From a virus (lineage: Duplodnaviria > Caudoviricetes): 54,933 nt of DNA. The stretch's first letter is position 1. Each line of letters starts with the position of its first letter. Under the pieces are notes generated by a model. The model did no database searches, was not told the DNA's origin, and saw only the letters and a list, made by a program, of their open reading frames with translations. The DNA lies in the IMG/VR virus record IMGVR_UViG_3300046504_000195, positions 1-54,933 of that record, one strand, 5' to 3'. Of this stretch, positions 21,241 to 33,598 are shown piece by piece. The position numbers and the translations under genes are program-made.

Positions 21241-21275
21241 AAAATTAAGTTTTTTGAAAAATAATTTGCATTTTG

Positions 21276-21306
21276 TTTGTATTTATAATTTTAATGCATA
21301 TATTTG
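21276..21306 (+). promoter_or_regulatory. Bacteroidota-type sigmaA promoter, tRNA array 1
   Basis: TTTG-N19-TATATTTG. Confidence 0.75.
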
Positions 21307-21338
21307 CACCGTGTAGTTAAACATTTTTAAAGTAGAAG

Positions 21339-21413
21339 ATGATGAAAAATTTCTTACATATCCAGCCCCAACCACAACATCCGCAAGATGCTGAATGGGA
21401 AAGATATGCTTGA
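21339..21413 (+). CDS. Leader peptide 1 (MMKNFLHIQPQPQHPQDAEWERYA)
   Basis: 9 of codons 7-16 are His/Gln/Pro; lies between promoter and terminator upstream of Pro/His/Gln tRNAs. Confidence 0.8.
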   Translation: MMKNFLHIQPQPQHPQDAEWERYA

Positions 21414-21451
21414 AACTTTCATCGAAGTTGGAAAGAATTAAGTTAAACATG

Positions 21452-21479
21452 AACCCCATTCGCAAGAGTGGGGTTTTTT
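21452..21479 (+). terminator. Attenuator terminator 1
   Basis: AACCCCATTC-GCAA-GAGTGGGGTT-TTTT; 5' arm also pairs with GAATGGG at 21393-21399. Confidence 0.85.
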
Positions 21480-21494
21480 CGTTCTTTAATATAT

Positions 21495-21589
21495 CAGGGG
21501 TTGATCGAGTTGGTTGAAGATGCTGGTCTTGGAAGCCAGTGACGGCACAAAGGTAGTGTCGTCCGTGGGTTCGAACCCCACACCCCTGA
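21495..21589 (+). tRNA. tRNA-Pro(TGG) with long variable arm
   Basis: CAGGGGT/ACCCCTG-A; loop CTTGGAA; ~25-nt extra arm. Confidence 0.85.
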
Positions 21590-21595
21590 CAATAA

Positions 21596-21670
21596 CTGGG
21601 TGTTCCGCAGATGGCTATACGGGCGTGTTCCGGAGACACGTGTTCGCAGGTTCAAATCCTGCCATCCAGA
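21596..21670 (+). tRNA. tRNA-Pro(CGG), C33
   Basis: CTGGGTG/CATCCAG; loop TCCGGAG. Confidence 0.85.
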
Positions 21671-21676
21671 CAACAT

Positions 21677-21752
21677 GGTGAAGGTAGTTCAATGGTAGAA
21701 TTCCAGATTGTGGTTCTGGTAGTTGCGGGTTCGAGTCCCGTCCTTCACCCCA
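21677..21752 (+). tRNA. tRNA-His(GTG)
   Basis: G-1, 8-bp acceptor stem, loop TTGTGGT, CCA. Confidence 0.93.
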
Positions 21753-21838
21753 AAATATCGTCAGAAAATACGATAATTTGAAAATATCGTGTGTAGATAG
21801 CATAAACAGTATTTATGCATTAAAAGCACGATAAATTT

Positions 21839-21914
21839 CGGGATGTGGTGTAGTTGGTAACATGCGTGCTTTGGGAGCATGAGACCGTGGGTTCGAGTCC
21901 CGCCATCCCGACCA
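21839..21914 (+). tRNA. tRNA-Pro(TGG)
   Basis: CGGGATG/CATCCCG-ACCA; loop TTTGGGA. Confidence 0.95.
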
Positions 21915-21917
21915 TAT

Positions 21918-21993
21918 GGTGATTGTAGAGGAATTGGTAGACTCTCCTGACTGTGAATCAGGAATCTTGCGGGTTCGAGTCCCGTCTTTCACC
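21918..21993 (+). tRNA. tRNA-His(GTG), second copy
   Basis: Loop CTGTGAA; two acceptor-stem mismatches. Confidence 0.8.
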
Positions 21994-22007
21994 CAAATAT
22001 TGACGTT

Positions 22008-22148
22008 ATGAGAAAAGGTAACAAACAAAATGCTTTCCTTAATGGCGAATGGGCAGCACACATGCGTAAATGGGGTAAATTTTTCACCGCCAAGGCACGT
22101 AGAACTGTCGATAAAAAAGTTATCAGGGAAGAACTTAAAAATGCATGA
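22008..22148 (+). CDS. Small basic hypothetical protein (46 aa)
   Basis: MRKGNKQNAFLNGEWAAHMRKWGK... between tRNAs. Confidence 0.55.
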   Translation: MRKGNKQNAFLNGEWAAHMRKWGKFFTAKARRTVDKKVIREELKNA

Positions 22149-22192
22149 TAAAATAATGTGATATTTTAAATTATCACGCATTTAAGTGATAT

Positions 22193-22265
22193 TGTCTTAT
22201 GGTGTAATTGGCAACACGTTTGACTCTGAATCAAAAGAGTGGGGGTTCGAAACCCTCTAAGACAA
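22193..22265 (+). tRNA. tRNA-Gln(CTG)
   Basis: TGTCTTA/TAAGACA; loop CTCTGAA. Confidence 0.9.
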
Positions 22266-22316
22266 CAATAGATTTTTTGCAATAAGTACTGAAAAACGGT
22301 CCTTTGCGCAAAATAT

Positions 22317-22399
22317 TGCCCTCTGGCAGAATGGTTATTGCATCGGTCTTTGAAGCCGACACTCATCAGGGTTTGTGGGTTCGAGTCCCACGGGGGCGA
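22317..22399 (+). tRNA. tRNA-Gln(TTG) with long variable arm
   Basis: Loop CTTTGAA; ~15-nt extra arm. Confidence 0.8.
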
Positions 22400-22414
22400 C
22401 AATGAAATTTATAT

Positions 22415-22488
22415 TGTCCTTTGGTGTAATTGGTTAACACATCTGATTTTGATTCAGGCGAGTGTAGGTTCGAGTCCTACAAGGACAA
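22415..22488 (+). tRNA. tRNA-Gln(TTG)
   Basis: TGTCCTT/AAGGACA; loop TTTTGAT. Confidence 0.9.
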
Positions 22489-23175
22489 CTAATTTATAAT
22501 TTTGATTCTTTGAGGATCAAAAACCATTCTAACTGTTGATTTGGTCACACCACCTTGATAACTATCAAGAACTCCAAGTACATCTACAATATCATAACCC
22601 AATTGTTGTGCAATTACTGCCAGATCATCTGTTGTAAGTTTAGTTCCATTTCCGGTGATTGTATCTTGAAACATTTGTAAATATTTATCAATTGTACCAT
22701 CATCAATACCATCATCATTCAATGCTTTTCTCACAGCATCAATACGAATTCCTCTGAATTTTTCACCATGCGCAGGAACTTGTAGTATTTTACCACTATC
22801 ATCTATATTGACTTTGATTGTGTTTGGAATTGATTCCTGATAATCAAATGCTCTTTTATCGTTTGCATATGTATTTGCAACACCATAATTGTCTGTAAAA
22901 AATATTGGTTTTTTAAACGGCATTCTACCATGCAGAGTTCCGGCATCTTTTAAAAGTTCAAAATATAATTTTTCGTCACCTGCTTCTCTTGCTTTCTGCA
23001 TTCCTGCCTGCAATTCGTTCCATTTTTGAGGATCAGTAATATAAGTTGCAGTACTGGTCCTTGGAACAAAATTACCTGCCTTTTTAACATCTCTGATATC
23101 AGGAGTACCATGATACCAAACCTTGTTTTGGACCACTTCAGCAATTACCTCATTTATAATATTGACAATATTCAT
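22489..23175 (-). CDS. Possible ADP-ribosyltransferase-like protein
   Basis: WYHGT, IFFTDN..VA.TYA, GYD, VFDPQRIK resemble phage ART-like domains. Confidence 0.5.
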   Translation of the reverse strand: MNIVNIINEVIAEVVQNKVWYHGTPDIRDVKKAGNFVPRTSTATYITDPQKWNELQAGMQKAREAGDEKLYFELLKDAGTLHGRMPFKKPIFFTDNYGVANTYANDKRAFDYQESIPNTIKVNIDDSGKILQVPAHGEKFRGIRIDAVRKALNDDGIDDGTIDKYLQMFQDTITGNGTKLTTDDLAVIAQQLGYDIVDVLGVLDSYQGGVTKSTVRMVFDPQRIKIIN

Positions 23176-23193
23176 ATAAATAAATACTAAAAT

Positions 23194-23224
23194 TTGTAAC
23201 ATATTGTATTTATTTTCGTATAAT
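23194..23224 (+). promoter_or_regulatory. ECF-like promoter (2 mismatches)
   Basis: TTGTAACATAT-N10-TTCGTATAAT. Confidence 0.6.
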
Positions 23225-23242
23225 TGCACAAACAAATTAACA

Positions 23243-23626
23243 ATGGGATACAAATTATTTCTTGACGATTTCCGTGAGCCACGTGATGCATTCTTTTATA
23301 AAGGGTTTCCAATATATAATGAGGATGATTGGACTGTCGTGCGTAATTATTCGGAATTCGTTAAAGTAATTGAAGAACTTGGAATTCCTGAAGCAGTTAG
23401 TTTTGACCATGATTTGGCAGATGTTCATTATGAAAAATCGTCATTCAATTATGACGATGAAAATTTGGAAAAGACCGGATATCATTGTGCCAAATGGTTG
23501 ATCTATTATTGTATTGACAACAAAAAAGAACTTCCTGCAATCATTTTAGTTCATTCAATGAATACTGCAGGAAGTCAGAATATTTGGTCATTATTTAATA
23601 GTTATTGGAAATCACTTAAAATGTAA
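23243..23626 (+). CDS. Cyclic-phosphate-processing receiver-like domain protein
   Basis: LFLDD.R.P, VRNY.EF, SFDHDL, TGY.CAKWL, VHSMN. Confidence 0.75.
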   Translation: MGYKLFLDDFREPRDAFFYKGFPIYNEDDWTVVRNYSEFVKVIEELGIPEAVSFDHDLADVHYEKSSFNYDDENLEKTGYHCAKWLIYYCIDNKKELPAIILVHSMNTAGSQNIWSLFNSYWKSLKM

Positions 23627-23629
23627 TTA

Positions 23630-24103
23630 TTATGAGATGGGTTTATCATTAATAATATCTTTATTTTCCAAAATATTGGGTTTTTTATTTTCTAAGTCTT
23701 TGAGTCTCTGATCTTCTAAATCTCTAAGTCTCTGATCATGATCCAAAAGTTTCTTATGAATTATAATTAACTCCAAACTAATGCTTTTTACTTCTAATTT
23801 TAATTCCTTGATTTCAACTTTTGTTTCTTTCATTTCAATTCGTAATTCTTTAATGTCTCTCTTGATTTCCAAAATGGCTTCCATAACAGCATCCATTTTA
23901 AGATGAAAAGAGGCATTATTATCAATAAGAATTTCAGCCAAGAAACGTTGATTTTCACTGAGTTTATCCTTTAAATAACCAATAACACCATCAAATTCTC
24001 TTTTAATAAACTGACGATCTCCGCCAGTAAGTGTTATACCCGACATGCCCTTTTCTGACATAGTTGGTTGCTCAATTAATTCTTGTACTGTCTTTTTTGC
24101 CAT
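23630..24103 (-). CDS. Coiled-coil hypothetical protein
   Basis: Heptad-rich C-terminal half. Confidence 0.7.
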   Translation of the reverse strand: MAKKTVQELIEQPTMSEKGMSGITLTGGDRQFIKREFDGVIGYLKDKLSENQRFLAEILIDNNASFHLKMDAVMEAILEIKRDIKELRIEMKETKVEIKELKLEVKSISLELIIIHKKLLDHDQRLRDLEDQRLKDLENKKPNILENKDIINDKPIS

Positions 24104-24157
24104 TTTGTTTAATTACTTTAATGTTGTAGATATGCTTTATACTATCTACTGATGGTA

Positions 24158-24529
24158 TTATTTGTTGTTTTTTTTTAATTCTTCAATAAAATTATCTAAA
24201 TCTTGTTTTGTTGCTAATCTATTGTTTCTAATAAAATTAGTTACAGCATTTGTAAGATTTTCCTGGCTTCTTTGCACTTGATTTACTTTACCTTCAAGTA
24301 CTGCCAAGCCATTTAATTTCAACAGTATTGAATCTCTGATAACTCTGTCTTGCTGTTGATTCTGAATTACAGTCTCAACTTTATCCTTGACAATAACTGC
24401 ACTGCTATCTTTCTTGGTAAAGTAAGCACTTACAAGCCAAATACTTGCAGCAAAACCAAAGACTGCAGAAAAAGTCACCATGACTTTAAATGCTTTTTTA
24501 AATGTACCATTTGTTGTACCTGTTGTCAT
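24158..24529 (-). CDS. Membrane-anchored coiled-coil protein
   Basis: N-terminal TM helix. Confidence 0.65.
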   Translation of the reverse strand: MTTGTTNGTFKKAFKVMVTFSAVFGFAASIWLVSAYFTKKDSSAVIVKDKVETVIQNQQQDRVIRDSILLKLNGLAVLEGKVNQVQRSQENLTNAVTNFIRNNRLATKQDLDNFIEELKKNNK

Positions 24530-24628
24530 TTTGAAATTTTATGTTAAACTATTCAATAATAAATAGTCAAATATTTCATAAAATAACACAAATTTTAGTG
24601 ATTATTATCATAACATAAAATTACTCAA

Positions 24629-25720
24629 TTATCTTCTTGTACCTGAAGTTCTTGAAGAACTTGAACCACCAGAATTTGAACCACTACCCGAACTTCTGTT
24701 GGCACTACCGGAATTATATGAACCACTTGAATAGTTAGAACTTCTATTAACATTGCCAGAATTATAACTTCTTGATGGCTGTGAATATGTTGAACTTCTT
24801 GAAGGTACAGAATAATTGCGTGATTGAGTACTTCTTTGATTATTTGATTGAATATAAGTACGTCTTTCCGTATTTGCCTGAGTACGTGATTGAGTATTTA
24901 CTTGAGACCTTCTATTCAATATGTTATTATCAATACGTGAATTATTATATTGAGGTCTTGTATTCATACGTGGATTATTGTAGGAAGGTTGATATGACCT
25001 TCTGTTTGCTTGATACGTTGCTTTTGTTTGTGGTTGGACCACACGTCTATTAATATTTGATGAACTTTCTTGACGAATATGTGCATATCCATGATTACTA
25101 TTATATCCATTACCACCATTATTCCAATTATGATTGTGAGTATACCAATTATGATTGCCGGACCAATTATGATTATGTCTCCAAGGACTCCAATTAGAAT
25201 ACCACCAATTATTGAATCCGAAACCAAAACCGAAATCATTATAATACCAAGGATTCCAGAATGAACTTCCCATGAATCCATATTCCCAATTCCAATTATC
25301 CATCATCCAATAGTTATTATAAAACCAAGGGTCTGAATACATCCAATAATTAAAACCGCCATGATAGAACCTTCCAATATTATATGAGTATAAAAAAGGG
25401 TCGTATTCATAATAATTAACATTGATATTAGGATTTTCTTTTACGAGTGTATCTACGATTGCTCTTAACGTGTCTTCAGTATTAACTCTTTTGTGTTTTT
25501 TGATTTTTTGAGCATCTTTATTTGGTTGATAATACAAATCATCATATTCAGGTTTTACTGAAGTAATTTGATTTTCTGTTGCATTATTACTTGAAGTCAT
25601 TTGACTTTTTGTAATCGAGTCTTCCCTGGCTTGCCAATATTTTTCATAATTGGATATTTTCTGTGCTGATAATGTGAACGTTAAAAGCACAAGTACGATT
25701 GATAATAGTAGTTTTTTCAT
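24629..25720 (-). CDS. Secreted Bacteroidota-like low-complexity protein
   Basis: Signal peptide MKKLLLSIVLVLLTFTLSAQ, YDDLYY motif, W/Y/G-rich middle, S/R/N-rich tail. Confidence 0.7.
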   Translation of the reverse strand: MKKLLLSIVLVLLTFTLSAQKISNYEKYWQAREDSITKSQMTSSNNATENQITSVKPEYDDLYYQPNKDAQKIKKHKRVNTEDTLRAIVDTLVKENPNINVNYYEYDPFLYSYNIGRFYHGGFNYWMYSDPWFYNNYWMMDNWNWEYGFMGSSFWNPWYYNDFGFGFGFNNWWYSNWSPWRHNHNWSGNHNWYTHNHNWNNGGNGYNSNHGYAHIRQESSSNINRRVVQPQTKATYQANRRSYQPSYNNPRMNTRPQYNNSRIDNNILNRRSQVNTQSRTQANTERRTYIQSNNQRSTQSRNYSVPSRSSTYSQPSRSYNSGNVNRSSNYSSGSYNSGSANRSSGSGSNSGGSSSSRTSGTRR

Positions 25721-25806
25721 TTTTATATATATTATATGTATATAAATAGCAATATTCATACCAAAGTTTTTCTATCTTTAAGGTGTATTTATAAGAAATT
25801 CAAATT

Positions 25807-26739
25807 ATGAAGGCAAAAAAAGATACTAAGCAATTGTTATTTGAAAACATGGCTAAATTAAACCCAACCTTTAAGCCAAAATTAAATGAAGATATGGGTT
25901 ATAGTTATGAACCACCAATGTTAAAATCACAACCAAATGATTCTTACAAAAAAATAATGAGTGATTTTCCTGGTCATGCTAAAAGTGCTAATCCAATTGA
26001 TTCTCCACAATATAAATGGTATCAACGTGTATCGAAGTTTATTCAAGGTAATAATAATGTAAATGAAAAGGCAGAATTAGTTAAATTTTTTCAAAACAAT
26101 TTTTTGGGTATGGATTATGACATACTTCAAACACCTGCAGAAACTGTGAGTTGGTGGTTATCTCCCGAACAACAAGAATTTATAAAAGATGAAATGAATA
26201 CTCCAAAAGACAGTAATGATGATTTAAACGAAGATAGTGAATTTCAAGAAAAAATTAAAAATGGTGATGTTTGGTTAGATTACTATGCACCTTCAGATAG
26301 TGAAGAATATACCGATGGACAATTTTGGTATAATAGAAGTGGTCAGGCAATGAGAGACCCTGAAGAATATAATCCACATAGTGATGGATATACACCATTT
26401 GGTGATGAAAGTGTGGTTAAGGAATCTCCTATGTTTGGTGGAGAAAAGGTATCGCAGGATCAATATGATGAACTTCAATACGATAAAGCCAATATGGAAA
26501 AAGCAATGGGTGATGCATTCAAAACACCTGAAGGTTATCAAATGAAACATCCTGCAAATCCTGGTGAAACCATTCAATTAAAAGATGGTGATAATGTATT
26601 AGTGAAAAGTATAGATCAAGCAACTGGAAATATTAACGTGAGATTATTTTTTAATGATAAAGATGCAATAAAATTCTCACCAAAAGGATATGCTGATGTT
26701 AGTTGGAGTCCGGTACAATTCGATACAATTGTTGGTTAG
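25807..26739 (+). CDS. Hypothetical protein with shared N-terminal motif
   Basis: MKAKKDTKQLLFENMAKLNPTFKPKLNE; late motif at 25785-25793. Confidence 0.75.
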   Translation: MKAKKDTKQLLFENMAKLNPTFKPKLNEDMGYSYEPPMLKSQPNDSYKKIMSDFPGHAKSANPIDSPQYKWYQRVSKFIQGNNNVNEKAELVKFFQNNFLGMDYDILQTPAETVSWWLSPEQQEFIKDEMNTPKDSNDDLNEDSEFQEKIKNGDVWLDYYAPSDSEEYTDGQFWYNRSGQAMRDPEEYNPHSDGYTPFGDESVVKESPMFGGEKVSQDQYDELQYDKANMEKAMGDAFKTPEGYQMKHPANPGETIQLKDGDNVLVKSIDQATGNINVRLFFNDKDAIKFSPKGYADVSWSPVQFDTIVG

Positions 26740-26785
26740 ATTTATTTAGAATCCGTATAAATAATATTACAATACTTTTTGACTT

Positions 26786-27064
26786 ATGAAAAAAGATAGT
26801 AGAGAAAGACTTTTCGAAGTCATGCAAAGGGTTGATAAAACATTCAAACCTAAATTGAATGAAGACTTCGGTGAAGAAAAAGAACTTGTTGTTTCGGAAG
26901 ATATAAATATTGATGTAGAAGTGGGTGACACTATTATGATGGGCAGATTTAAAAATTCGCCAACAGTAGTAAAGTCAATAGGAAAAGACGAACATGGTAT
27001 GCCAATTATTAACGGTAAGAAAGTAGTAACATTTAGAAAGGCTACTGAAAAAAATAAAAAATAA
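26786..27064 (+). CDS. Hypothetical protein with shared N-terminal motif
   Basis: RERLFEVMQRVDKTFKPKLNE. Confidence 0.75.
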   Translation: MKKDSRERLFEVMQRVDKTFKPKLNEDFGEEKELVVSEDINIDVEVGDTIMMGRFKNSPTVVKSIGKDEHGMPIINGKKVVTFRKATEKNKK

Positions 27065-27096
27065 TTTAAATTTTTTTAAAAATAATTGAAAAAATA

Positions 27097-27126
27097 TTTG
27101 GAATTAAGAAAACTTTATTATCTTTG
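27097..27126 (+). promoter_or_regulatory. Bacteroidota-type promoter, tRNA array 2
   Basis: TTTG-N18-TATCTTTG. Confidence 0.75.
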
Positions 27127-27170
27127 CCGAGTATTTAATTGAAAGAAACAACGAATTTAATAACAAAACA

Positions 27171-27263
27171 ATGAAAAGGTTATTCGACATATTGGTAGCA
27201 GTCCTCATGGTGGATGTCCTATTATGGGCAGCCGAAGAGGATAAGTTATGCACTGTCGGGTAA
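27171..27263 (+). CDS. Leader peptide 2 (MKRLFDILVAVLMVDVLLWAAEEDKLCTVG)
   Basis: 17 of codons 6-24 are D/E/L/V/A/W. Confidence 0.8.
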   Translation: MKRLFDILVAVLMVDVLLWAAEEDKLCTVG

Positions 27264-27295
27264 TACTTGAATATTACACTCCTTTCTTTTACAAG

Positions 27296-27332
27296 AAAAA
27301 AACCCGACTACTCATAACAGTCGGGTTTTTTT
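27296..27332 (+). terminator. Attenuator terminator 2
   Basis: AACCCGACT...AGTCGGGTT-TTTTT; 5' arm also pairs with GTCGGGT at 27255-27261. Confidence 0.85.
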
Positions 27333-27348
27333 ATGCAAGAAAGGAGAG

Positions 27349-27360
27349 GTTCTTTGACAT
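27349..27360 (+). promoter_or_regulatory. boxA-like element
   Basis: GTTCTTTGACAT just before the first tRNA. Confidence 0.55.
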
Positions 27361-27372
27361 GTTGGAAATTTC

Positions 27373-27442
27373 GAGGTCGTAGTTTAATGGTTAGAATATC
27401 GCACTGTCTATGCGAGGAAGGGGTTCGAATCCCACGGCTTCG
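27373..27442 (+). tRNA. tRNA-Asp(GTC)
   Basis: GAGGTCG/CGGCTTC-G; loop CTGTCTA. Confidence 0.85.
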
Positions 27443-27504
27443 GCATACTTGTTTATTTGATATTTATTTATTATTTTTGTCGAACACTAAGTATTTATAT
27501 TTAA

Positions 27505-28155
27505 ATGACAGACATGAATAAAATAATATTGGAAAAAACAATAAAAGAATCTATATCATTTTCTGACGTATCGAGAAAGATATATGGAAATAATTTATGT
27601 GGTAATAGACAAACAATAAAAAAATATGTGAAACAATATAATATAGATATTTCACATTTCATTCAAATACCGCAAAAACATAATTTTCGTTCTAAAAGAG
27701 AACTTTCCGAAATATTGGTGGAGCATTCGATTTTTGATACAACAAATTTAAAAAATCGTTTATATTATGAAGGATTAAAAAAACGAATTTGTGAAAAATG
27801 TGGACAAGACGAAAATTGGCACGGTGAACACATAAGTTTAATTCTTGATCATATTAATGGTATAAATGATGATTTAAGAATAGAAAATTTAAGAATACTT
27901 TGTCCTAATTGTAACGCAACATTACCCACACATGGTGGCAAAAACGTAAAGCATAAATCAAAAGAAAAAATAAATAAACTTAGAAATTCTCAAAAAGTAT
28001 CTATGTCTCAACGAAAAGTAATGCGTCCACCACATGAACAACTTCAAAACGAAATAAATGAATTAGGATTTACAGGAACTGGAAAAAAATATGGTGTAAG
28101 TGATAATGCAATAAGAAAATGGATTAAATTTTATAATAAACATACACTCTCGTAG
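27505..28155 (+). CDS. HNH endonuclease (free-standing, homing-type)
   Basis: CEKC..LILDHINGINDDLRIENLRILCPNC; C-terminal HTH. Confidence 0.88.
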   Translation: MTDMNKIILEKTIKESISFSDVSRKIYGNNLCGNRQTIKKYVKQYNIDISHFIQIPQKHNFRSKRELSEILVEHSIFDTTNLKNRLYYEGLKKRICEKCGQDENWHGEHISLILDHINGINDDLRIENLRILCPNCNATLPTHGGKNVKHKSKEKINKLRNSQKVSMSQRKVMRPPHEQLQNEINELGFTGTGKKYGVSDNAIRKWIKFYNKHTLS

Positions 28156-28220
28156 GCTTCTTGGTGAAGAACTTGGCTGTCACCCATGTAAAACAGACGG
28201 ATCGTAACCGTTCGGGAGTG
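28146..28220 (+). tRNA. tRNA-Asp(GTC), atypical T loop
   Basis: ACTCTCG/CGGGAGT-G; loop CTGTCAC; T loop ATCGTAA. Confidence 0.7.
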
Positions 28221-28227
28221 CAAAAAT

Positions 28228-28299
28228 GCTCGGTTCTTCTAATGGTCCGGAAAGTAGACTCTCAATCTACGAATAGCAGTTCGATTCTGCTACCGAGTA
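28228..28299 (+). tRNA. tRNA-Glu(CTC)
   Basis: GCTCGGT/ACCGAGT; loop CTCTCAA. Confidence 0.9.
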
Positions 28300-28307
28300 C
28301 AAAAAAT

Positions 28308-28390
28308 GCTGCGTTATACAAGTCCGGTTAAAGTAGGCAGACCTTCAAACTGTCCCGAAAGGTTCGTGGGTTCGAATCCCACACGCAGTA
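28308..28390 (+). tRNA. tRNA-Glu(TTC), long variable arm, C33
   Basis: GCTGCGT/ACGCAGT; loop CCTTCAA; arm CCCGAAAGG. Confidence 0.75.
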
Positions 28391-28395
28391 CAAAA

Positions 28396-28493
28396 TGAAT
28401 CGAAACAACGGCAAGGTACAGCCAAGAGTACAGGATGGTAATGCTTGAAGATATACGAAAACCGCCTTCAAGTTCGAGTGTTTCGATTCACCA
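28396..28493 (+). ncRNA. Structured ncRNA candidate ending in CCA
   Basis: 12-bp TGAATCGAAACA/TGTTTCGATTCA stem followed by CCA; inner CTTGAAG/CTTCAAG hairpin. Confidence 0.5.
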
Positions 28494-28495
28494 AT

Positions 28496-28567
28496 GCTCG
28501 GTTCGTATAAAGGTTAGTACCTAAGACCTTCAATCTTAGTATACGGGTTCGACTCCCGTACCGAGTA
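28496..28567 (+). tRNA. tRNA-Glu(TTC), C33
   Basis: GCTCGGT/ACCGAGT; loop CCTTCAA. Confidence 0.88.
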
Positions 28568-28637
28568 CAAAAAATGTTGCTTTTATTAATCATTATCGTT
28601 ATATTTGCCCAATAATGATTATTAAATCCATCAAATT

Positions 28638-29321
28638 ATGAAAATACTTATTTTAGGTGACGGACTATTGGGATCAGAAATAGTCAAACAAATGGGTTGG
28701 GATTATCTCTCAGTCAACAAAGACGGAATTGATGTCTTAAATGATTTTGGCGGATTTGTGAGTAAGGTATATGAATTTCATCCAACAGTAATAATAAATT
28801 GCATTGGATATACAAAGACATACGATACTGAAAGGCAACATCATTGGGATTTAAACTATGGATTTGTAGTAAAACTTGTAGATATGTGCAATGATTTCGG
28901 ATATAAATTAGTGCATATTTCAACAGATTACATTTACGCCAATAGTAAAAATAAAAAATCTGAAAAAGATATTCCTGTTCATCAGGAAACTTGGTACTCA
29001 TATTGCAAATTAATTTCAGATGCATACGTGCAATTAAAAGCAAGAGATTATCTGATGTTCAGATGTTCATTTAAACCTAAACCCTTTCCATATGAAAAAG
29101 CATTTGTAAATATCATGGGAAATTTTGATTATGTCGATGTTTTGGCAAAACAAATGATTGCCTTAATTATTGAAGAAAGAACAGGCGTTTGGAATATCGG
29201 TACAGAATTTAAATCAGTATATGAATTGGCAATTCAAACACGACAAGTAGTAGATTTTTCTTATTCAAATCAATTGCCAATCATTGAAATGGACCTCAGT
29301 AAATTCAATAATAGAGTATGA
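28638..29321 (+). CDS. RmlD-like NAD(P)-dependent sugar-nucleotide reductase
   Basis: ILILGDGLLG, IINCIG, VHISTDYIY, YSYCK; TATATTTG promoter at 28600. Confidence 0.8.
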   Translation: MKILILGDGLLGSEIVKQMGWDYLSVNKDGIDVLNDFGGFVSKVYEFHPTVIINCIGYTKTYDTERQHHWDLNYGFVVKLVDMCNDFGYKLVHISTDYIYANSKNKKSEKDIPVHQETWYSYCKLISDAYVQLKARDYLMFRCSFKPKPFPYEKAFVNIMGNFDYVDVLAKQMIALIIEERTGVWNIGTEFKSVYELAIQTRQVVDFSYSNQLPIIEMDLSKFNNRV

Positions 29322-29728
29322 GAGAAATTAAACGAAGAAGAAACTGTAAAAATTGTGATAAAAAATTAATTAGAACCGACAACATTTATTGTAATATCGG
29401 ATGCTATCAGGAATATCAATTTAAAAACAAATATCTTCCATTATTTTATCTTGGAGAAATAAGAGAAAATAAAACATTAAGAAAAATACTTATATATCTC
29501 TATGGTAATAAATGTTCTGAGTGCCCTTGTGAGTCTATTTGGAATGGAAAGCCATTAGTTATGCAAGTAGATCATAAGGATGGCAATTCCGATAATAACA
29601 TGCCAGAAAATGTAAGATTGCTCTGTCCCAATTGTCACACTCAAACTCCAACGTTTTGTGCTGGTGACAATAAACAAACAAGAAGAAATAAATATCTTAG
29701 AAAATATAAAAATAGTATGCTCCTTTAG
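29318..29728 (+). CDS. HNH endonuclease
   Basis: MQVDHKDGNSDNNMPENVRLLCPNCH. Confidence 0.88.
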   Translation: MREIKRRRNCKNCDKKLIRTDNIYCNIGCYQEYQFKNKYLPLFYLGEIRENKTLRKILIYLYGNKCSECPCESIWNGKPLVMQVDHKDGNSDNNMPENVRLLCPNCHTQTPTFCAGDNKQTRRNKYLRKYKNSMLL

Positions 29729-29796
29729 TTCAGTTGGTTCAGAATATCTGCCTTACAAGCAGAGGGTCATTGGTTCGAATCCAATAGGGAGCACCA
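29719..29796 (+). tRNA. tRNA-Val(TAC)
   Basis: GCTCCTT/AGGGAGC-ACCA; loop CTTACAA. Confidence 0.93.
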
Positions 29797-29800
29797 AAAT

Positions 29801-29886
29801 GGGAAGATAGTGTAACTGGATAAACATCCCACTCCTACAAAGTGGAGACGAGAAGTATAATCAGGGTTCGAGTCCCTGTCATCCCA
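29801..29886 (+). tRNA. tRNA-Val(TAC), long variable region, C33
   Basis: Stem CCACT/AGTGG; loop CCTACAA; 16-nt extra region. Confidence 0.75.
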
Positions 29887-29889
29887 CAA

Positions 29890-29966
29890 TGGGTCGTAAG
29901 TTGTGTTGGTTAATTGCCAAATCGGTGTTATAACCGATAAAACGCCAATATCGGCTCTACGACCTA
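29890..29966 (+). ncRNA. Structured spacer RNA candidate
   Basis: TGGGTCGTA/TACGACCTA, GTGTTGG/CCAATAT, ATCGGT/ACCGAT. Confidence 0.4.
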
Positions 29967-29974
29967 TAATTTAA

Positions 29975-30056
29975 CCTCAAGTGGTGGAATTGGTAGACAC
30001 GTGCGTTTAAGAGGCGCATGCCGAAAGGTTTGCGAGTTCGATTCTCGCCTTGAGGA
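29975..30056 (+). tRNA. tRNA-Leu(AAG)
   Basis: CCTCAAG/CTTGAGG; stem TGCGT/GCGCA; loop TTAAGAG; long arm. Confidence 0.85.
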
Positions 30057-30061
30057 CAATT

Positions 30062-30145
30062 GCGGATGTGGCTAATAGAGAATGGCAGATCGTCCTGGCT
30101 TAGAACCAGGAAACCTTGTAGGTTCGAGTCCTATCATCCGCACCA
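30062..30145 (+). tRNA. tRNA-Leu(TAG), short variable arm, odd D arm
   Basis: GCGGATG/CATCCGC-ACCA; loop CTTAGAA. Confidence 0.8.
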
Positions 30146-30146
30146 T

Positions 30147-30221
30147 GTGGACATGCCGGAACTGGTATACGGGTTGGTCTCAGACACCAATTTTTTGTGG
30201 GTTCGACTCCCATTGTCCACA
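30147..30221 (+). tRNA. tRNA-Leu(CAG), short variable arm
   Basis: GTGGACA/TGTCCAC; loop CTCAGAC. Confidence 0.85.
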
Positions 30222-30262
30222 CAAAGGTGAATGTTGTTACTTTTTGCAGGAGTAGCACCACC

Positions 30263-30358
30263 TGTGCCGAATAACTTGTAGAGGGAGAAGTAGTACTTTC
30301 AAATACATCATGTATCTGCAACATCTGATGATGGTTGAGTTATTAAAAAGGCACACCA
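30263..30358 (+). ncRNA. Structured ncRNA candidate ending in CCA
   Basis: Nested stems TGTGCC/GGCACA-CCA, AATAACTT/GAGTTATT, TTGTAGA/TCTGCAA. Confidence 0.45.
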
Positions 30359-30359
30359 C

Positions 30360-30433
30360 GGGGTCGTGGCATAATTGGCTATTGCACCTGCCTTGCACGC
30401 AGGGGACTGAGGGTTCGAGTCCCTTCGACTCCA
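30360..30433 (+). tRNA. tRNA-Ala(TGC)
   Basis: GGGGTCG/CGACTCC with G3:U70; loop CTTGCAC. Confidence 0.93.
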
Positions 30434-30513
30434 CAAAAAATACTCCATATGGTTTGAAAGTCCATTCAAGGGTATCAGTTATAATATTCACTGACTGCTA
30501 TCTGGGAGAACAC

Positions 30514-30586
30514 GGGGCAGTGGTGACAAAGGCTAACACGGCAGACCTGCAATCTGTAGATGAGGGTTCGATTCCCTTCTGCTCCA
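30514..30586 (+). tRNA. tRNA-Ala(TGC), C33
   Basis: GGGGCAG/CTGCTCC with G3:U70; loop CCTGCAA. Confidence 0.9.
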
Positions 30587-30670
30587 CGAGAATTTGGTTT
30601 TGGTTATTTCCGTCAACCTTGCAATAAGAACGTCAAAAACTACGGTATAAATTCTTTCCAAATTCATCAT

Positions 30671-30744
30671 GGCACTGTACTCCAATCGGCAGAGGGGACA
30701 GACTTAAAACCTGTAAAGTGTGGGTTCGAATCCCACCAGTGCTA
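30671..30744 (+). tRNA. tRNA-Leu(TAA), short variable arm
   Basis: GGCACTG/CAGTGCT; loop CTTAAAA. Confidence 0.85.
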
Positions 30745-30752
30745 CAAAATAT

Positions 30753-30835
30753 ACGTCAGTGACCGAGTGGCTGAAGGTGATGGTCTCCAAAACCATTTGC
30801 GAAAGCACACGTGGGTTCGAATCCTACCTGGCGTG
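30753..30835 (+). tRNA. tRNA-Trp(CCA) with long variable arm
   Basis: ACGTCAG/CTGGCGT-G; loop CTCCAAA; arm TGCGAAAGCA. Confidence 0.85.
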
Positions 30836-30840
30836 CAAAA

Positions 30841-30972
30841 TGAAGTGATAGTAAAAATCGCAGGTATGTACTGCAGGTTGGCGTTCAGTCCAAATGAACT
30901 AAGTGTACAACGACCACTGAGGGCAGAAATGTTCCCAAGAGCAATATCAGTTAGCAGTACACTACCACTTCA
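30841..30972 (+). ncRNA. Multibranched structured ncRNA candidate
   Basis: TGAAGTG/CACTTCA, TGTACTGC/GCAGTACA, GTTCA/TGAAC, ACTGA/TCAGT, TGTTC/GAGCA. Confidence 0.5.
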
Positions 30973-31022
30973 GAAAGTTCCTAATATTTCCAAATTATTA
31001 CTAATTTAGGAATAATTAGTAA

Positions 31023-31280
31023 TTGTTAGTATTAACTTTAATAAGAAAGGAGTACATCTTCAAAATCAAATTCAGGTATCGCAGAACATTGTGGTGGAAA
31101 TTCGTACATTACAATTACTTCCACAAGAAACTCTTCAAAGAATATTATATTCAAAGGAGAAGAAAACCATTTAGTGACAGAGAAATCCAAAAATACGAAC
31201 TCTATAAGAAACTTGATGATTTGATTACATTAAGACGTGTTGATTGGTTACGAGAATTTATTTGGAGATTAGAACCATAA
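31023..31280 (+). CDS. Hypothetical basic protein
   Basis: ORF only; start uncertain. Confidence 0.4.
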   Translation: MLVLTLIRKEYIFKIKFRYRRTLWWKFVHYNYFHKKLFKEYYIQRRRKPFSDREIQKYELYKKLDDLITLRRVDWLREFIWRLEP

Positions 31281-31282
31281 AT

Positions 31283-31313
31283 TTGTAACATTTCCGGAAT
31301 TCATACGTATAAT
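31283..31313 (+). promoter_or_regulatory. ECF-like promoter
   Basis: TTGTAACATTT-N10-TACGTATAAT. Confidence 0.7.
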
Positions 31314-31338
31314 ATGTATTTATTGTAAATTTATAAAT

Positions 31339-31764
31339 ATGAAAAAGACATTTATTGTAATTATTATGTTGTTAATTTCTGCAATATCTTATTCGCAGAA
31401 ACCACATGAAAAGTATTATCAAAATATTGCTGCTGAACGCATGCATGGTCGAACTGAAGTTGTATTGGAAGATAGGTCTCGTGCAGATATTGTAACCGAT
31501 ACATTTGCGATTGAAGTTGAATTTGCTCATAAATGGGCAGAAAGCATTGGACAGTCAGAATTTTATTCATTAGAACTTCACAAGAAAGCAGGTATTGTAT
31601 TAATTACTGATGGAATGAAAGATGATAAATATGTTCAGAGATTAATGAAAGTTGCAACAAAACTTAAAATTACTGTTTGGGTAATATTTACCACTGACAA
31701 TAGTTGGGGAATTGTTGATAGCATTCCAAAAAAAGATGGAGAGCACATGAAATATATTTATTAA
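31339..31764 (+). CDS. Signal-peptide protein with PD-(D/E)XK-like motif
   Basis: MKKTFIVIIMLLISAISYSQ; RADIVTDTFAIEVEFAHKWAESIGQ. Confidence 0.6.
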   Translation: MKKTFIVIIMLLISAISYSQKPHEKYYQNIAAERMHGRTEVVLEDRSRADIVTDTFAIEVEFAHKWAESIGQSEFYSLELHKKAGIVLITDGMKDDKYVQRLMKVATKLKITVWVIFTTDNSWGIVDSIPKKDGEHMKYIY

Positions 31765-31805
31765 AACTTGTTAATCTCCCGATAAAAAGTTAATTTTGAT
31801 CCGTT

Positions 31806-32549
31806 ATGTATATCATTGCAAAGAAAAAAGATTATTATGATGGTGTTGCTGGTACAAGTGGCATCGACAAAACTATTGTTTATGAACGTGATACTATTGA
31901 AGTCGAAGACAAGGATGTGCCGGATTTTTTTCGGAAAACAACATTCTTTAATCATTTCAGGGGAAGAGAAGATAATCCCTTTTACAAATTAGGCAACTCT
32001 CATATGGATAATAAATATTGGGAAATATATCCATATCATTCATATTTTATTATTGGATTTTGTGGAAAACTCTATGTTGGCTTCAAACTCTATAGCATTG
32101 ATAAAAACACCAATGATTATAATAATGTTATCACAAGAATCACATATGATCGGGATTTAATGATAAAACTTTTTGAGAAAAAAACATATTGGGGACATTT
32201 TCAGGATAATCTTAATCACGTACTTCAATATGATGCAATGGATTGGTTTAGAAATATGAATACACCTTGTTTTGCATATGATCAAAGTTATGGTGGTATG
32301 AATCATATTGATTTGAAACATGGTAGAGAAAATTACGATTCAAAATTTATTATAAATCCATTACTAAAAGACTACGAATTTTATAAAGTATTTGACACAG
32401 TTCAGGCATTTCAGGAAATTCAGATGTTTATAGGTGGAGTACTTGGAAACAAAGAAAAGGAAATTGTAAATGTTGCAGATAAATATAAAATCGAACAACA
32501 CGGATTTGATAAGTGGAGTTTTAGAAAAATGCCGGAAGATAAAAAATGA
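31806..32549 (+). CDS. Hypothetical phage protein
   Basis: KDYYD..FCGKLY..AFQEI..HGFDK. Confidence 0.75.
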   Translation: MYIIAKKKDYYDGVAGTSGIDKTIVYERDTIEVEDKDVPDFFRKTTFFNHFRGREDNPFYKLGNSHMDNKYWEIYPYHSYFIIGFCGKLYVGFKLYSIDKNTNDYNNVITRITYDRDLMIKLFEKKTYWGHFQDNLNHVLQYDAMDWFRNMNTPCFAYDQSYGGMNHIDLKHGRENYDSKFIINPLLKDYEFYKVFDTVQAFQEIQMFIGGVLGNKEKEIVNVADKYKIEQHGFDKWSFRKMPEDKK

Positions 32550-32749
32550 AAAAGAAAAAATCTTTGGGTATAATGTCATTAATGTCAACAGGAAAATTGA
32601 CAATACCAACAAAAGAAGAATTGGAACGGGAATTTGGCAGACCATATAGACCAAATGATCCAATAATAATGGGTTCAATAGAGTTCATTGAAAAGTTTAA
32701 TAAGGCAATTGAAGAATACGATAAAACGCATGGAACAAAAACTACATAA
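32546..32749 (+). CDS. Hypothetical protein
   Basis: Start overlaps upstream stop. Confidence 0.55.
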   Translation: MKKKKSLGIMSLMSTGKLTIPTKEELEREFGRPYRPNDPIIMGSIEFIEKFNKAIEEYDKTHGTKTT

Positions 32750-32999
32750 AATACAAATACTTCCTGCTAAGTTCGTTGAAAAAAGACCTGATGGCAGATA
32801 TGTTGTGGGCATTTTAATTGCAGATGATCGTATTGACAACATGATATTTGATTCATTTTCACTTGAAGGTATGGTAAATCCAAAGTATTTACTGATAGGT
32901 ATAATGACAGGTGCAGGTTTTTCTCAGATAACATTTGTTGATGCAAATGATCTGGAAAAAACATTTAAAAAGAAATGGAAAGAATTAATTGATTATTGA
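32730..32999 (+). CDS. Hypothetical protein
   Basis: ORF from MEQKLH. Confidence 0.6.
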   Translation: MEQKLHKIQILPAKFVEKRPDGRYVVGILIADDRIDNMIFDSFSLEGMVNPKYLLIGIMTGAGFSQITFVDANDLEKTFKKKWKELIDY

Positions 33000-33000
33000 T

Positions 33001-33195
33001 ATGGAAGATTTTGACAAAGTAGTAGGAGAAATAATATCGCAATTAGCAAGTATTGAATATTGTGGTGATATGTCAGATATTGGAAATGAAATCGGAATTG
33101 CAATTGGTAATCAATTCGATAAAGATAATACAATTGAAGACTTTATAATGGGTCTGAGACACGGAGTATCTTTGGCAGATGGTACACATGGATAG
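33001..33195 (+). CDS. Hypothetical protein
   Basis: ORF from MEDFDK. Confidence 0.6.
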   Translation: MEDFDKVVGEIISQLASIEYCGDMSDIGNEIGIAIGNQFDKDNTIEDFIMGLRHGVSLADGTHG

Positions 33196-33209
33196 TTCTT
33201 TAAAATATT

Positions 33210-33561: not shown

Positions 33562-33598
33562 CAAATTACTTAAATATTAAGTAGTTATTTGAAAATTT

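Follow-up and report, generated by a model that had tools for sequence, protein, structure and literature searches.

Amino-acid biosynthetic operons of the trpL, hisL, leuL, thrL, ilvL and pheL class are regulated by attenuators in which a short ORF is located between the promoter and the genes, its regulatory codons correspond to the function under control, alternative 1:2, 2:3 and 3:4 pairing decides whether an intrinsic terminator is formed, and the stop codon abuts region 2. The leader typically contains a run of codons for one amino acid, and multi-amino-acid leaders occur as well (thr, ilv). T-box elements also couple terminator read-through to the state of the tRNA pool; they bind uncharged tRNA directly and need no ORF. 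Control of a component of the translation apparatus, and not of biosynthesis, is described in PMC2965389 for the phenylalanyl-tRNA synthetase operon, which has such an attenuator, and for hisS paralogues preceded by His leader peptides. In rRNA operons, antitermination by boxA and Nus factors precedes long untranslated RNA genes. The boxA consensus GYTCTTTAANA is given in PMC5725501.

The DNA analyzed here, called the window below, is a stretch of 54,933 nucleotides (positions 1 to 54,933 of IMG/VR virus record IMGVR_UViG_3300046504_000195, Duplodnaviria; Caudoviricetes). Positions 27097-27371 on its plus strand are interpreted as a ribosome-mediated (leader-peptide) transcription attenuator that gates a phage tRNA array and in this way senses decoding capacity by feedback, and a probability of about three in four is assigned to this reading. 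The sequence-level features of a ribosome-mediated attenuator are all present and most of them are conserved. The arrangement of ORF, predicted alternative pairings, terminator and stop codon is that of the amino-acid operons; in contrast to these, phage tRNA genes, a tmRNA and an L7/L12 gene would be placed under control instead of enzymes, and the leader samples about 11 tRNA species and six amino acids in place of a run of one. Because the downstream targets are tRNAs, tmRNA, L7/L12 and HNH ORFs, and not biosynthetic or aminoacyl-tRNA synthetase genes, the locus is regarded as a variant of classical attenuation that stands outside the described leader families. The synthetase leaders control an enzyme for a single amino acid, whereas here the regulated product would be the tRNA itself, so that the loop would close directly on decoding capacity.

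At gathering score, Rfam models matched only tRNA and tmRNA in the window. The Thr_leader model reached 23.4 bits against a cut-off of 55, on the terminator only, and no sequence or Rfam relationship to the leaders of the amino-acid operons was found. On one strand or the other, the terminator hairpin accounted for nearly all of the 34 sub-threshold Rfam matches (27090-27375, E up to 10), which were discarded as generic terminator resemblance. The T-box model gave no match, whether across the window at gathering score or within 27090-27375 at E up to 10.

A promoter-like site of the form TTTG-spacer-TAnnTTTG is located on the plus strand at 27097-27126, 45 nt upstream of the leader ATG; the TTTG / TAnnTTTG consensus is presumably that of Bacteroidota promoters. 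The strict pattern has eight matches in the window, all on the plus strand, and four of them (21276, 27097, 40803, and 48657) each lie 33-68 nt upstream of one of four leader ATGs. The site at 27097-27126 and the promoter of unit 4 have the block TATCTTTGCCnnGTATTTAAT in common. The presumed regulated unit occupies 27372-36025 on the plus strand and contains, in order, tRNAs for Asp, Asp, Glu, Glu, Val (two), Leu (three), Ala (two), Leu and Trp, then the tmRNA, a tRNA-Leu, the L7/L12 gene, another tRNA-Leu and a tRNA(CAT), with HNH and other ORFs scattered among them. The first tRNA starts at 27372, and the terminator of the leader lies 38 nt before the array. No further match to the strict promoter pattern was present in 27127-37738, and a scan limited to loops of up to 8 nt returned no terminator-like sites on the plus strand in 27333-36025. 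A transcript is thus predicted to span the whole unit. A T4 Rnl1-like RNA ligase is encoded nearby.

The leader ORF (27171-27263, plus strand) has 30 codons and encodes MKRLFDILVAVLMVDVLLWAAEEDKLCTVG. Its proposed regulatory codons, 6 to 24 (27186-27242), read D I L V A V L M V D V L L W A A E E D. The original prediction held that 17 of these 19 codons specify amino acids of the downstream array, and a recount gave the same figure for D/E/V/L/A/W; the four Leu codons (TTA, TTG, CTC, and CTA), the three Val codons (GTA, GTC, and GTG), the single TGG for Trp, the two exceptions (ATA and ATG) and the identities of the downstream tRNAs were likewise as described there. The tRNA(CAT) at 35952 has a paired position 1-72 and an anticodon stem without a run of three G-C pairs, and is therefore not initiator-like in appearance; Met and Ile2 both remain candidates for its identity. 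Among the 312 ATG-initiated ORFs of 20-50 aa found on either strand of the window, the leader alone reached a D/E/V/L/A/W/M fraction of 0.72, and its best 19-codon window contained 17 matching codons, the runner-up having 13. Against the 44 long ORFs of the window, where the expected own-group fraction is 0.36, the binomial P of the leader was 5.9e-5. The leader has cognate codons for every tRNA species of the unit except Leu(cag), 11 of 12 (null mean 5.9); 11 species were attained by only 2 of 290 ORF starts, one of which is the leader. Ten leader codons, namely ATA, ATG and eight more, lie outside the array amino acids. Two Asp residues occur within the 18-residue hydrophobic stretch of the peptide, and searches of Pfam and PHROGs with the four leader peptides of the window (E up to 10) returned no family.

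Three segments of the leader RNA can pair in alternative ways. Region 1 (TTCGACA, 27183-27189), the 5' strand of the protector, or anti-antiterminator, was proposed in the original prediction to pair with TGTCGGG (27254-60) with an inner TCCTC/GAGGA helix, and this pairing was recovered in the minimum free energy (MFE) fold and in the RNAalifold consensus. Region 2 (27245-27261) consists of GTCGGGT (27255-61), whose final T opens the stop codon, and GTTATG (27245-50); its partner is either region 1 or the 5' arm and loop of the terminator, the antiterminator being formed by GTCGGGT with ACCCGAC (27302-08) and by a second part, 27245-50 with 27313-18. The first of these antiterminator helices had been predicted, and its pairing is kept across 39 relatives. 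The intrinsic terminator, seen in the sequence, the MFE fold and the consensus, is composed of region 3 (ACCCGACT, 27302-09), the loop ACTCATAAC and region 4 (AGTCGGGT, 27319-26), followed by a T-run to 27332; its stem of 8 bp is lengthened by A/T pairs and followed by 7 T. It was missed by the terminator scan because its loop of 9 exceeds the limit of 8. Upstream of the terminator lie a small hairpin that includes the stop codon (GTAATA/TATTAC, 27260-27277), for which relatives have, as judged by eye, a hairpin with differing stems, and a pyrimidine-rich element, CTCCTTTCTT (27279-27288), whose CCTTTC core is seen by eye in most of the 39 aligned relatives. A further helix between CTCCTTTCTT (27279-88) and AAGAAAGGAG (27337-46) had also been proposed. 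It is present in the MFE fold of the window; among 40 distinct relatives, with 10 or fewer of 200 shuffles reaching the helix as the threshold, it exceeded shuffles in only 6, for which reason it was rejected as a conserved part of the device; the partner is kept in a minority.

Masked folds were computed as thermodynamic folds of the nascent RNA from which a 28-nt ribosome footprint was excluded. With the A site at codon 6, 9, 12, 15, 21 or 24 (6 of the 7 positions tried), region 2 paired with region 3; at codon 18, region 1 was paired with region 2 around the footprint. The terminator was formed with a ribosome on the stop codon and also without a ribosome. Leaders 1, 3 and 4 of the window showed the same behavior.

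Conservation was assessed in relatives, 51 of whose loci had been fetched by a pattern inside the ORF, and the conservation of the ORF core is consequently biased, that of regions 2 to 4 being free of this effect. One row was dropped as a false pattern match with an unrelated ORF (L036), two because they were cut by the locus end (L019 and L043), and three because region 3 or 4 was unmatched by the patterns (L025, L045, and L059); L066, which meets the locus end, was dropped from alignment A2 only. The alignment comprised 39 distinct relatives, and some counts were made on 40 sequences; 38 distinct homologous peptides of this leader (leader 2) were found. A megablast search of 20800-37000 against 50,697 phage records gave tRNA-sized matches only, in 4 records, and no close relative among them. 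Among the matches listed, the sequence was present in 19 sequencing runs, all of them DNA.

The leader ATG is invariant across the 39 relatives and indels in the core are multiples of three. In the 38 peptides, D/E/V/L/A/W make up 682 of the 822 core residues, the motifs LDIL, LLW and ED are kept in position, and the same positions swap radically among A, V, D and E, all within the set. In 33 of the 38, the segment of 7-12 residues that separates IL from LLW contains residues of the set D/E/N/S/R/T/K. Mean entropy was 0.32, 0.50 and 0.60 at codon positions 1, 2 and 3, respectively, the third being the most variable with a modest signal. An Asp-first order of the downstream array is common to the relatives, and the alignment also contains an invariant GTCCTATTATGGG block.

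The RNAalifold consensus of the 39 distinct sequences consisted of the protector and the terminator, the latter with compensatory changes. Variation in the protector (columns 18-24 with 101-107) was all one-sided, with no compensatory double changes, and the helix is broken in two relatives carrying CTCAAC. The helix between regions 2 and 3 was paired in 92.1% of cells across the 39 relatives, as against at most 47% in slid registers, and changes on both sides were found at 5 of 10 pairs (16 cells). When compared with 500 shuffles, none reached the observed value on four of five measures and 114 did so for further pair types, although such controls overstate independence because the 39 sequences are related. 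Extension of the helix toward the loop gave a sum of 61 versus 44.2 +/- 3.9 in permutations (0/20000; anchored counts, 40 sequences), four Watson-Crick pair types are found at antiterminator position -2/+2, and in the lineage of L015 and L066 regions 2, 3 and 4 are altered jointly (GGG/CCC to GAG/CTC). Region 2 is read as V-G-stop, S-G-H-V-N or G-R-E-R depending on the relative while its bases are unchanged, and constancy in three reading frames points to a constraint at the RNA level. Where relatives have longer C-terminal tails, their stop codon falls 16-30 nt beyond the start of region 2; a terminating ribosome would thus not always be over region 2, and the step that depends on a ribosome at the stop codon is not universal.

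Directly before the first tRNA, at 27349-27371 on the plus strand, lies a boxA-like motif with a conserved extension. The motif itself, GTTCTTTGACA (27349-27359), agrees with the boxA consensus at 10 of 11 positions and, as in rRNA operons, precedes long untranslated RNA genes; unlike in those operons, it lies in a phage, before tRNA arrays and after a putative leader-peptide attenuator. The relaxed pattern GYTCTTTNANA has 9 matches in the window (1.99 expected), three of which (21481, 27349, and 48943) directly follow three of the four attenuator terminators and one of which (33195) directly precedes the Rfam start of the tmRNA. The 20-mer pattern of this element had 127 occurrences, mostly in Bacteroidota genomes, and 48 of them preceded 23S rRNA, at a median of 62 nt; no 16S rRNA was found downstream of it, either by a primer-type pattern or by BLAST with a 16S 5' segment; the motif is hence a 23S-proximal and not a 16S-leader element in the sampled genomes. 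The position in rRNA spacers argues for a boxA rather than a promoter at 27350-71. A role of that segment as a promoter of the tRNA array was rejected by inspection, as the spacing fits neither promoter type and the tRNA starts directly after it. Use of the motif at 27349-27359 by Nus factors is inferred from these similarities. Of the 127 occurrences, 67 had no rRNA nearby, and 66 of these were also without tRNA within 400 nt. Rfam gave no match on four motif loci without rRNA; four examples contain a hairpin followed by apparent direct repeats, and loci of this kind are suspected to be candidate CRISPR leaders.

Each of the four tRNA arrays in the window, which jointly span all 20 amino acids, is preceded by a promoter-like site, a small ORF and a terminator. 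In a 4x4 table of leaders by arrays, 73 of 123 residues fell on the diagonal (chi-square 90.9), a sum reached by none of 200000 permutations, and 32 of the 34 tRNA species have a cognate codon in the leader of their own unit. The three other leaders are not hydrophobic and have the same architecture as leader 2. The tRNAs of LR756501.1, an unrelated phage of 735 kb, are grouped otherwise than in the window, and a small ORF with a terminator and a core matching the array was found at 5 of the 7 tRNA clusters fetched. The cores are TPAPAVAFRRGTGTGTGT before Arg/Thr/Val/Ala/Gly/Pro tRNAs, IINMIQEQMQQIQ before Met/Gln/Ile/Glu tRNAs, SKHSKHFSSSSKWF before Trp/His/Phe/Lys/Ser tRNAs and YNDYCIND before Ile/Cys/Asp/Asn/Tyr tRNAs, and a Leu-rich ORF precedes five tRNA-Leu. 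For the four tabulated leaders, 62 of 117 residues fell on the diagonal, again reached by none of 200000 permutations. Recurrence in non-homologous leaders suggests a general and possibly convergent principle.

In the proposed mechanism, transcription would begin at the promoter-like site and a ribosome would translate the 30-codon leader, sampling codons of 11 of the 12 downstream tRNA species. With plentiful aminoacyl-tRNAs the ribosome would reach the stop codon and cover region 2 (27255-61), the terminator (27302-32) would form, and transcription would end before the tRNAs; with no translation, region 1 would pair with region 2 and the terminator would form again. Scarcity of any sampled tRNA would cause a stall within codons 6-24, leaving region 1 unpaired and allowing region 2 to take the 5' arm and loop of the terminator, and RNA polymerase would then enter the boxA-like element and the tRNA array. 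Translation of the leader ORF, and stalling as the trigger of read-through, are inferred from its sequence. As the leader is written in codons of the downstream tRNAs, it is probable that the phage raises its tRNA output only at times of shortage at the ribosome.

Four other explanations were weighed against this reading. The match between leader and tRNAs could be ascribed to chance, since the residues L, V, A, D and E are common and an own-group fraction of 0.36 is expected; the leader nevertheless ranks 1 of 312, four units match their arrays (0/200000), the pattern is replicated in LR756501.1 and it is kept in 38 homologues, which leaves this explanation a negligible probability. It is unlikely that a ribosome-driven switch senses general translation status (ribosome availability, global slowdown or infection stage) and not particular tRNAs. 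Such a sensor would fit a leader that samples many codon types instead of repeating one, the ineffective stall in one of seven masked folds, and the leader codons unrelated to the array. It would not need leaders partitioned by array, and the four leaders of the window and five in LR756501.1 are enriched for the amino acids of their own array and not of others; the coverage of 32 of 34 tRNA species by the leaders of their own units also argues against it.

The ORF might instead encode a functional small protein, for instance a toxin or membrane peptide, and have its own terminator, the tRNAs being expressed independently or by constitutive leak-through. Its hydrophobic center, the position-conserved LDIL, LLW and ED in 38 homologues, and the description, in abstracts on peTrpL, of leader peptides with functions in trans would agree with this. 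It is nonetheless judged quite improbable: charged or polar residues interrupt the hydrophobic stretch in 33 of 38 homologues, exchanges among A, V, D and E at the same positions are radical, region 2 keeps its RNA sequence across three frames and the antiterminator covaries, no Pfam or PHROGs family was matched, and three non-hydrophobic leaders share the architecture. The membrane-toxin scenario, which the original prediction had named as refuting, accordingly fits poorly. Binding of the leader RNA by a trans factor (a protein or uncharged tRNA, in the manner of T-box or TRAP), with the ORF incidental and the position of the ribosome irrelevant, would give a role to the conserved CTCCTTTCTT element, the stop-codon hairpin and the GTCCTATTATGGG block, which lie outside the attenuator roles. 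Against it stand the lack of any such Rfam family at gathering score, with T-box absent and sub-threshold matches nearly all within the terminator hairpin, the conserved ATG and reading frame with core indels in threes, and an amino-acid composition that follows the arrays in non-homologous leaders beyond sequence, and it is considered very improbable.

The literature searched contained no description of tRNA genes controlled by leader-peptide attenuation, whether in cells or in viruses, and the results support attenuation of tRNA genes as a new form of classical attenuation. Huge phages of Bacteroidota-like hosts may well hold their whole tRNA complement under codon-sampling attenuators, each array being followed by a boxA-type signal and transcribed only on stalling. 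Large phages can have dozens of tRNA genes. If the leaders work as proposed, ribosome stalling would feed back directly on tRNA genes, and the resulting circuit would tune the supply of decoding capacity by itself and could also sense depletion or cleavage of host tRNAs by defense systems. The attenuators would then provide a testable readout of the codons that limit phage translation and would explain the otherwise arbitrary grouping of tRNAs into arrays. The leaders would be compact, modular 'codon-hunger' sensors, and their composition could predict the transcription-unit structure and the host phylum of uncultured huge phages.

The original prediction that positions 27171-27360 form an attenuator ahead of the second tRNA array was supported by the match between leader and array composition, by the conservation of an RNA switch, and by the repetition of the arrangement at other arrays. 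The leader 2 ORF (27171-27263) translates as MKRLFDILVAVLMVDVLLWAAEEDKLCTVG*. Rereading of the sequence confirmed that 17 of the 19 residues of codons 6-24 are D, E, V, L, A or W, with ATA and ATG as the exceptions, and that, as had been described, the ORF uses four different codons for Leu and three for Val, plus one TGG. The fraction of residues belonging to the ORF's own tRNA group (21/29, Met counted) had a binomial P of 5.9e-5 relative to the composition of 44 long ORFs in the window. Leader 2 alone attained this fraction among the 312 ATG-ORFs (20-50 aa, both strands) of the whole window, and its best 19-codon stretch scored 17, compared with 13 for the runner-up. Leader 2 lacks a cognate codon for only one of the 12 distinct tRNA species in its unit (Leu-cag) and so covers 11; over 290 ORF starts of the same length the mean was 5.9, and 11 was attained by two, leader 2 included.

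The window (54,933 bases, 33% G+C) is a virus record encoding a T4-like portal protein, large terminase, GH25 lysozyme, and ribonucleotide reductase, as well as an L7/L12 protein, HNH endonucleases, and a T4 Rnl1-type RNA ligase. Its 45 tRNA genes and one tmRNA are all on the + strand and form four blocks: Pro/His/Gln (21495-22489); Asp/Glu/Val/Leu/Ala/Trp, then tmRNA, Leu, Leu, and a tRNA with a CAT anticodon (27372-36025); Lys/Tyr (41165-42020); and Thr/Cys/Ile/Ser/Phe/Gly/Asn/Arg (48957-54748). Combined, the blocks cover all 20 amino acids, and no amino acid is common to two of them. Several of the tRNAs are unusually long (83-96 nt), one (49542-49612, tgaa) has an anticodon loop of 8 bases, and HNH-type endonuclease ORFs (27505-28155 and 29318-29728) sit among the tRNA genes within array 2. 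Directly after tRNA(CAT), a hairpin at 36027-36052 (CCCATCGAATTCGATGGG between A and T runs) is a candidate for the end of transcription unit 2, as proposed earlier. The RNA ligase gene (38298-39404; Pfam RNA_lig_T4_1, E 3e-19) has a tRNA array on either side. Ligases of the Rnl1 class mend cleaved tRNA in T4, and the gene hints that tRNA damage matters to this phage.

Every helix named in the original prediction was found in the window sequence. Region 1 (TTCGACA, 27183-89) can pair with region 2 (GTCGGGT, 27255-61, the final T being the first base of the stop codon) as a protector, region 2 with region 3 (ACCCGAC, 27302-08) as an antiterminator, and region 3 with region 4 (GTCGGGT, 27320-26, followed by seven T) as an intrinsic terminator. 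The unconstrained MFE fold included the protector and the terminator, the inner TCCTC/GAGGA helix, and an outer helix of CTCCTTTCTT (27279-88) with AAGAAAGGAG (27337-46). This outer helix, part of the earlier proposal, is present in the sequence and in the MFE fold but scored above shuffles in just 6 of 40 relatives. The effect of a ribosome was modeled by folding the nascent RNA, cut off immediately 5' of region 4, with a 28-nt footprint kept unpaired; such folds are thermodynamic predictions rather than measurements. When the A site was placed at codon 6, 9, 12, 15, 21, or 24 (six of the seven positions modeled), 27255-61 was predicted to pair with 27302-08, and an additional pairing of GUUAUG (27245-50) with CAUAAC (27313-18), the latter inside the terminator loop, was predicted for the stalled ribosome. 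With the A site at codon 18, region 1 was instead predicted to close on region 2 around the footprint. The terminator was predicted to form in the full transcript when the ribosome was at the stop codon or absent. Located 3' of the stop codon and 5' of the terminator is a conserved pyrimidine-rich stretch with a CCTTTC core, CTCCTTTCTT (27279-27288). Most of 39 relatives have it at the corresponding position, and it presumably resembles the pyrimidine-rich 3' end of 16S rRNA.

Relatives of leader 2 were reached through a protein encoded upstream of unit 2, which pointed to a 327-kb viral contig whose leader is homologous and whose array order is the same, through exact copies, in 18 IMG/VR loci, of the 22-nt motif located 3' of the terminator and 5' of the first tRNA, and through a pattern within the ORF (51 metagenome loci). 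A total of 69 units were extracted, 45 of them distinct at the DNA level, and 38 distinct peptides were obtained after one false hit was dropped. In all flanks of sufficient length, an Asp-first array was located 3' of the leader. Of the 822 residues in the peptide cores, 682 were D/E/V/L/A/W (Ile 43, Met 42, others 55), and single-position exchanges were often chemically radical yet stayed within the set A, V, D, E. Mean entropies at codon positions 1, 2, and 3 were 0.32, 0.50, and 0.60, and this greatest variation at position 3 is consistent with a modest coding signal. A charged or polar residue occurs between IL and LLW in 33 of the 38 peptides, which argues against a membrane helix. The synonymous sites of the V-L-L-W-A codons at 27222-27237 (GTCCTATTATGGGCAG) are nearly invariant, even in 12 relatives retrieved without that block as the search pattern; this conservation exceeds what coding alone needs.

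The RNAalifold consensus of 39 distinct sequences (alignment A2) contained the protector and the terminator. In the same alignment, 92.1% of cells in the region 2:region 3 helix were standard pairs, falling to 20-47% when the partner was slid by 1-3 columns, and double-sided changes were found in 5 of 10 pairs (16 cells). The observed values were attained by none of 500 shuffles on four of five measures and by 114 of 500 on the fifth, further pair types, although these controls overstate independence because the sequences are related. Counts anchored on conserved hexamers in 40 distinct sequences gave four Watson-Crick pair types at antiterminator position -2/+2 (CG 13, TA 9, AT 3, GC 3). Contiguous extension of the antiterminator toward the loop summed to 61, versus 44.2 +/- 3.9 with permuted flanks (0/20000), and the terminator's own extension to 86, versus 55.9 +/- 4.2. 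In one lineage (loci L015 and L066), region 3 changed from CCCGAC to CTCGAC, and regions 4 and 2 both from GTCGGG to GTCGAG. Most relatives translate region 2 as V-G-stop, some as S-G-H-V-N, and the L015/L066 lineage as G-R-E-R, while the bases of the region are kept; the constraint therefore acts on the RNA rather than on the peptide. In longer-tailed relatives the stop codon is 16-30 nt past the region 2 start. Protector variation was one-sided only, and the helix is broken in two relatives with CTCAAC. Sequence analysis could hardly make the conserved terminator/antiterminator switch more secure. A small hairpin (27260-27277) enclosing the stop codon was kept, as judged by eye in A2, in relatives with differing stem sequences, which suggests that it covaries.

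The layout of unit 2, with a promoter-like site, small ORF, intrinsic terminator, and first tRNA, was also found upstream of blocks 1, 3, and 4 (21276-21491, 40803-41030, and 48657-48953). Leader 1 (21339-21413, MMKNFLHIQPQPQHPQDAEWERYA) precedes Pro/His/Gln, leader 3 (40874-40966, MITFGTYYFGKKSYKKYFIRIGKFMSICEK) Lys/Tyr, and leader 4 (48755-48886, MKTYRHISAIITSTSSRNGISIFCSDFTGRNNGIDTGYGFLMR) Thr/Cys/Ile/Ser/Phe/Gly/Asn/Arg. When leader residues were tabulated against array groups for the four units, 73 of 123 were diagonal (chi-square 90.9, 9 df), a sum attained in 0 of 200000 random re-deals of residues, and 32 of 34 tRNA species had a cognate codon in their own leader. In masked folds, leaders 1, 3, and 4 were predicted to behave like leader 2, with strands within the ORFs (21389-99, 40932-39, and 48856-66, respectively) pairing onto the 5' arm of their own terminator. 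The Pro/His/Gln leader family (11 distinct members, all with a QPQPQQHPQ core) agrees with this and keeps a GAATGGGG strand complementary to terminator CCCCATTC, the window copy being GAATGGG. The strict pattern TTTG-spacer-TAnnTTTG, which we take to be the Bacteroidota promoter consensus, had eight window matches, overall no excess over shuffles; all eight were on the + strand, and four were located 33-68 nt 5' of the four leader start codons. Three ORFs (20914-21240, 25807-26739, and 26786-27064) share a KKD..LFE.M.K.N.TFKPKLNED-like N-terminus, and two of them end a short distance before the promoter-like sites that precede leaders 1 and 2.

Adjoining the first tRNA of unit 2, GTTCTTTGACA (27349-59) matches 10 of 11 positions of GYTCTTTAANA, the boxA consensus in a passage of PMC5725501. 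The relaxed form GYTCTTTNANA had nine window matches, versus 1.99 +/- 1.43 in shuffles, including GTTCTTT-type motifs just 3' of the terminators of unit 1 (21481-21491), unit 2 (27349; motif 27349-27371), and unit 4 (48943-48953) and one just 5' of the Rfam start of the tmRNA (33195-33205). The 22-nt motif recurs with three mismatches at 49149-49170, where it abuts tRNA-Cys, and the pattern search of the window gave no clear boxA-like copy in the Lys/Tyr unit. A 20-nt form was found at at least 120 loci (L079-L198) in a bacterial genome collection, mostly in records named Bacteroidota. Among the matches listed, 48 of 127 occurrences were a median of 62 nt upstream of the 23S rRNA 5' region, after spacer tRNAs, 67 were in other contexts without rRNA, and 12 had a flank too short to judge. 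At four non-rRNA loci viewed, the motif was followed by a hairpin and apparent direct repeats, and some such loci are possibly CRISPR-array leaders. The element at 27349-59 is a putative boxA-type signal, which would keep polymerase processive through the long untranslated tRNA array once past the attenuator, and it may also point to a Bacteroidota host.

The sole match between the window and LR756501.1, a 735-kb phage record, was tRNA-sized. This record has 66 tRNA matches in separate clusters, and five of seven clusters inspected are immediately preceded by a small ORF, whose core matches the array, and a terminator. The five leaders (loci L072-L076) are non-homologous: TPAPAVAFRRGTGTGTGTCVPAG precedes Arg, Thr, Val, Ala, Gly, Pro; IINMIQEQMQQIQ precedes Met, Gln, Ile, Glu; ILHINLLNSLCLLGIKL precedes five tRNA-Leu; SKHSKHFSSSSKWF precedes Trp, His, Phe, Lys, Ser; and YNDYCIND precedes Ile, Cys, Asp, Asn, Tyr. 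For four tabulated leaders, 62 of 117 residues were diagonal (attained in 0 of 200000 permutations). The two clusters without a leader hold merely two or three unusual tRNAs each. The first of the five LR756501.1 leaders holds GGGTGTGGG, complementary by eye to terminator-arm CCCACACCC. The grouping of amino acids differs from that in the window and the leaders track it, which is the strongest evidence for a functional composition match.

The device is functionally like classical ribosome-mediated attenuation but belongs to none of the described leader families, because no Rfam leader family attained cut-off on the window, the leader peptides matched no Pfam or PHROGs family, and it targets tRNA genes, not genes for biosynthesis or synthetases. 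In the openly searchable article texts, no report was found, for phages or cells, of tRNA genes, arrays, or operons controlled by leader-peptide or ribosome-mediated attenuation. By word search, 'attenuat', 'leader', and 'terminator' are absent from the main text of a huge-phage survey (PMC7162821), as are 'tRNA gene' and 'tRNA operon' from PMC2965389. The best-supported mechanism, to which we assign a probability of roughly three in four, is that the switch is operated by ribosomes that stall at codons which the downstream tRNAs read. Attenuation of tRNA genes by a leader peptide would be a new version of a known regulation, and it is probably general among huge phages.
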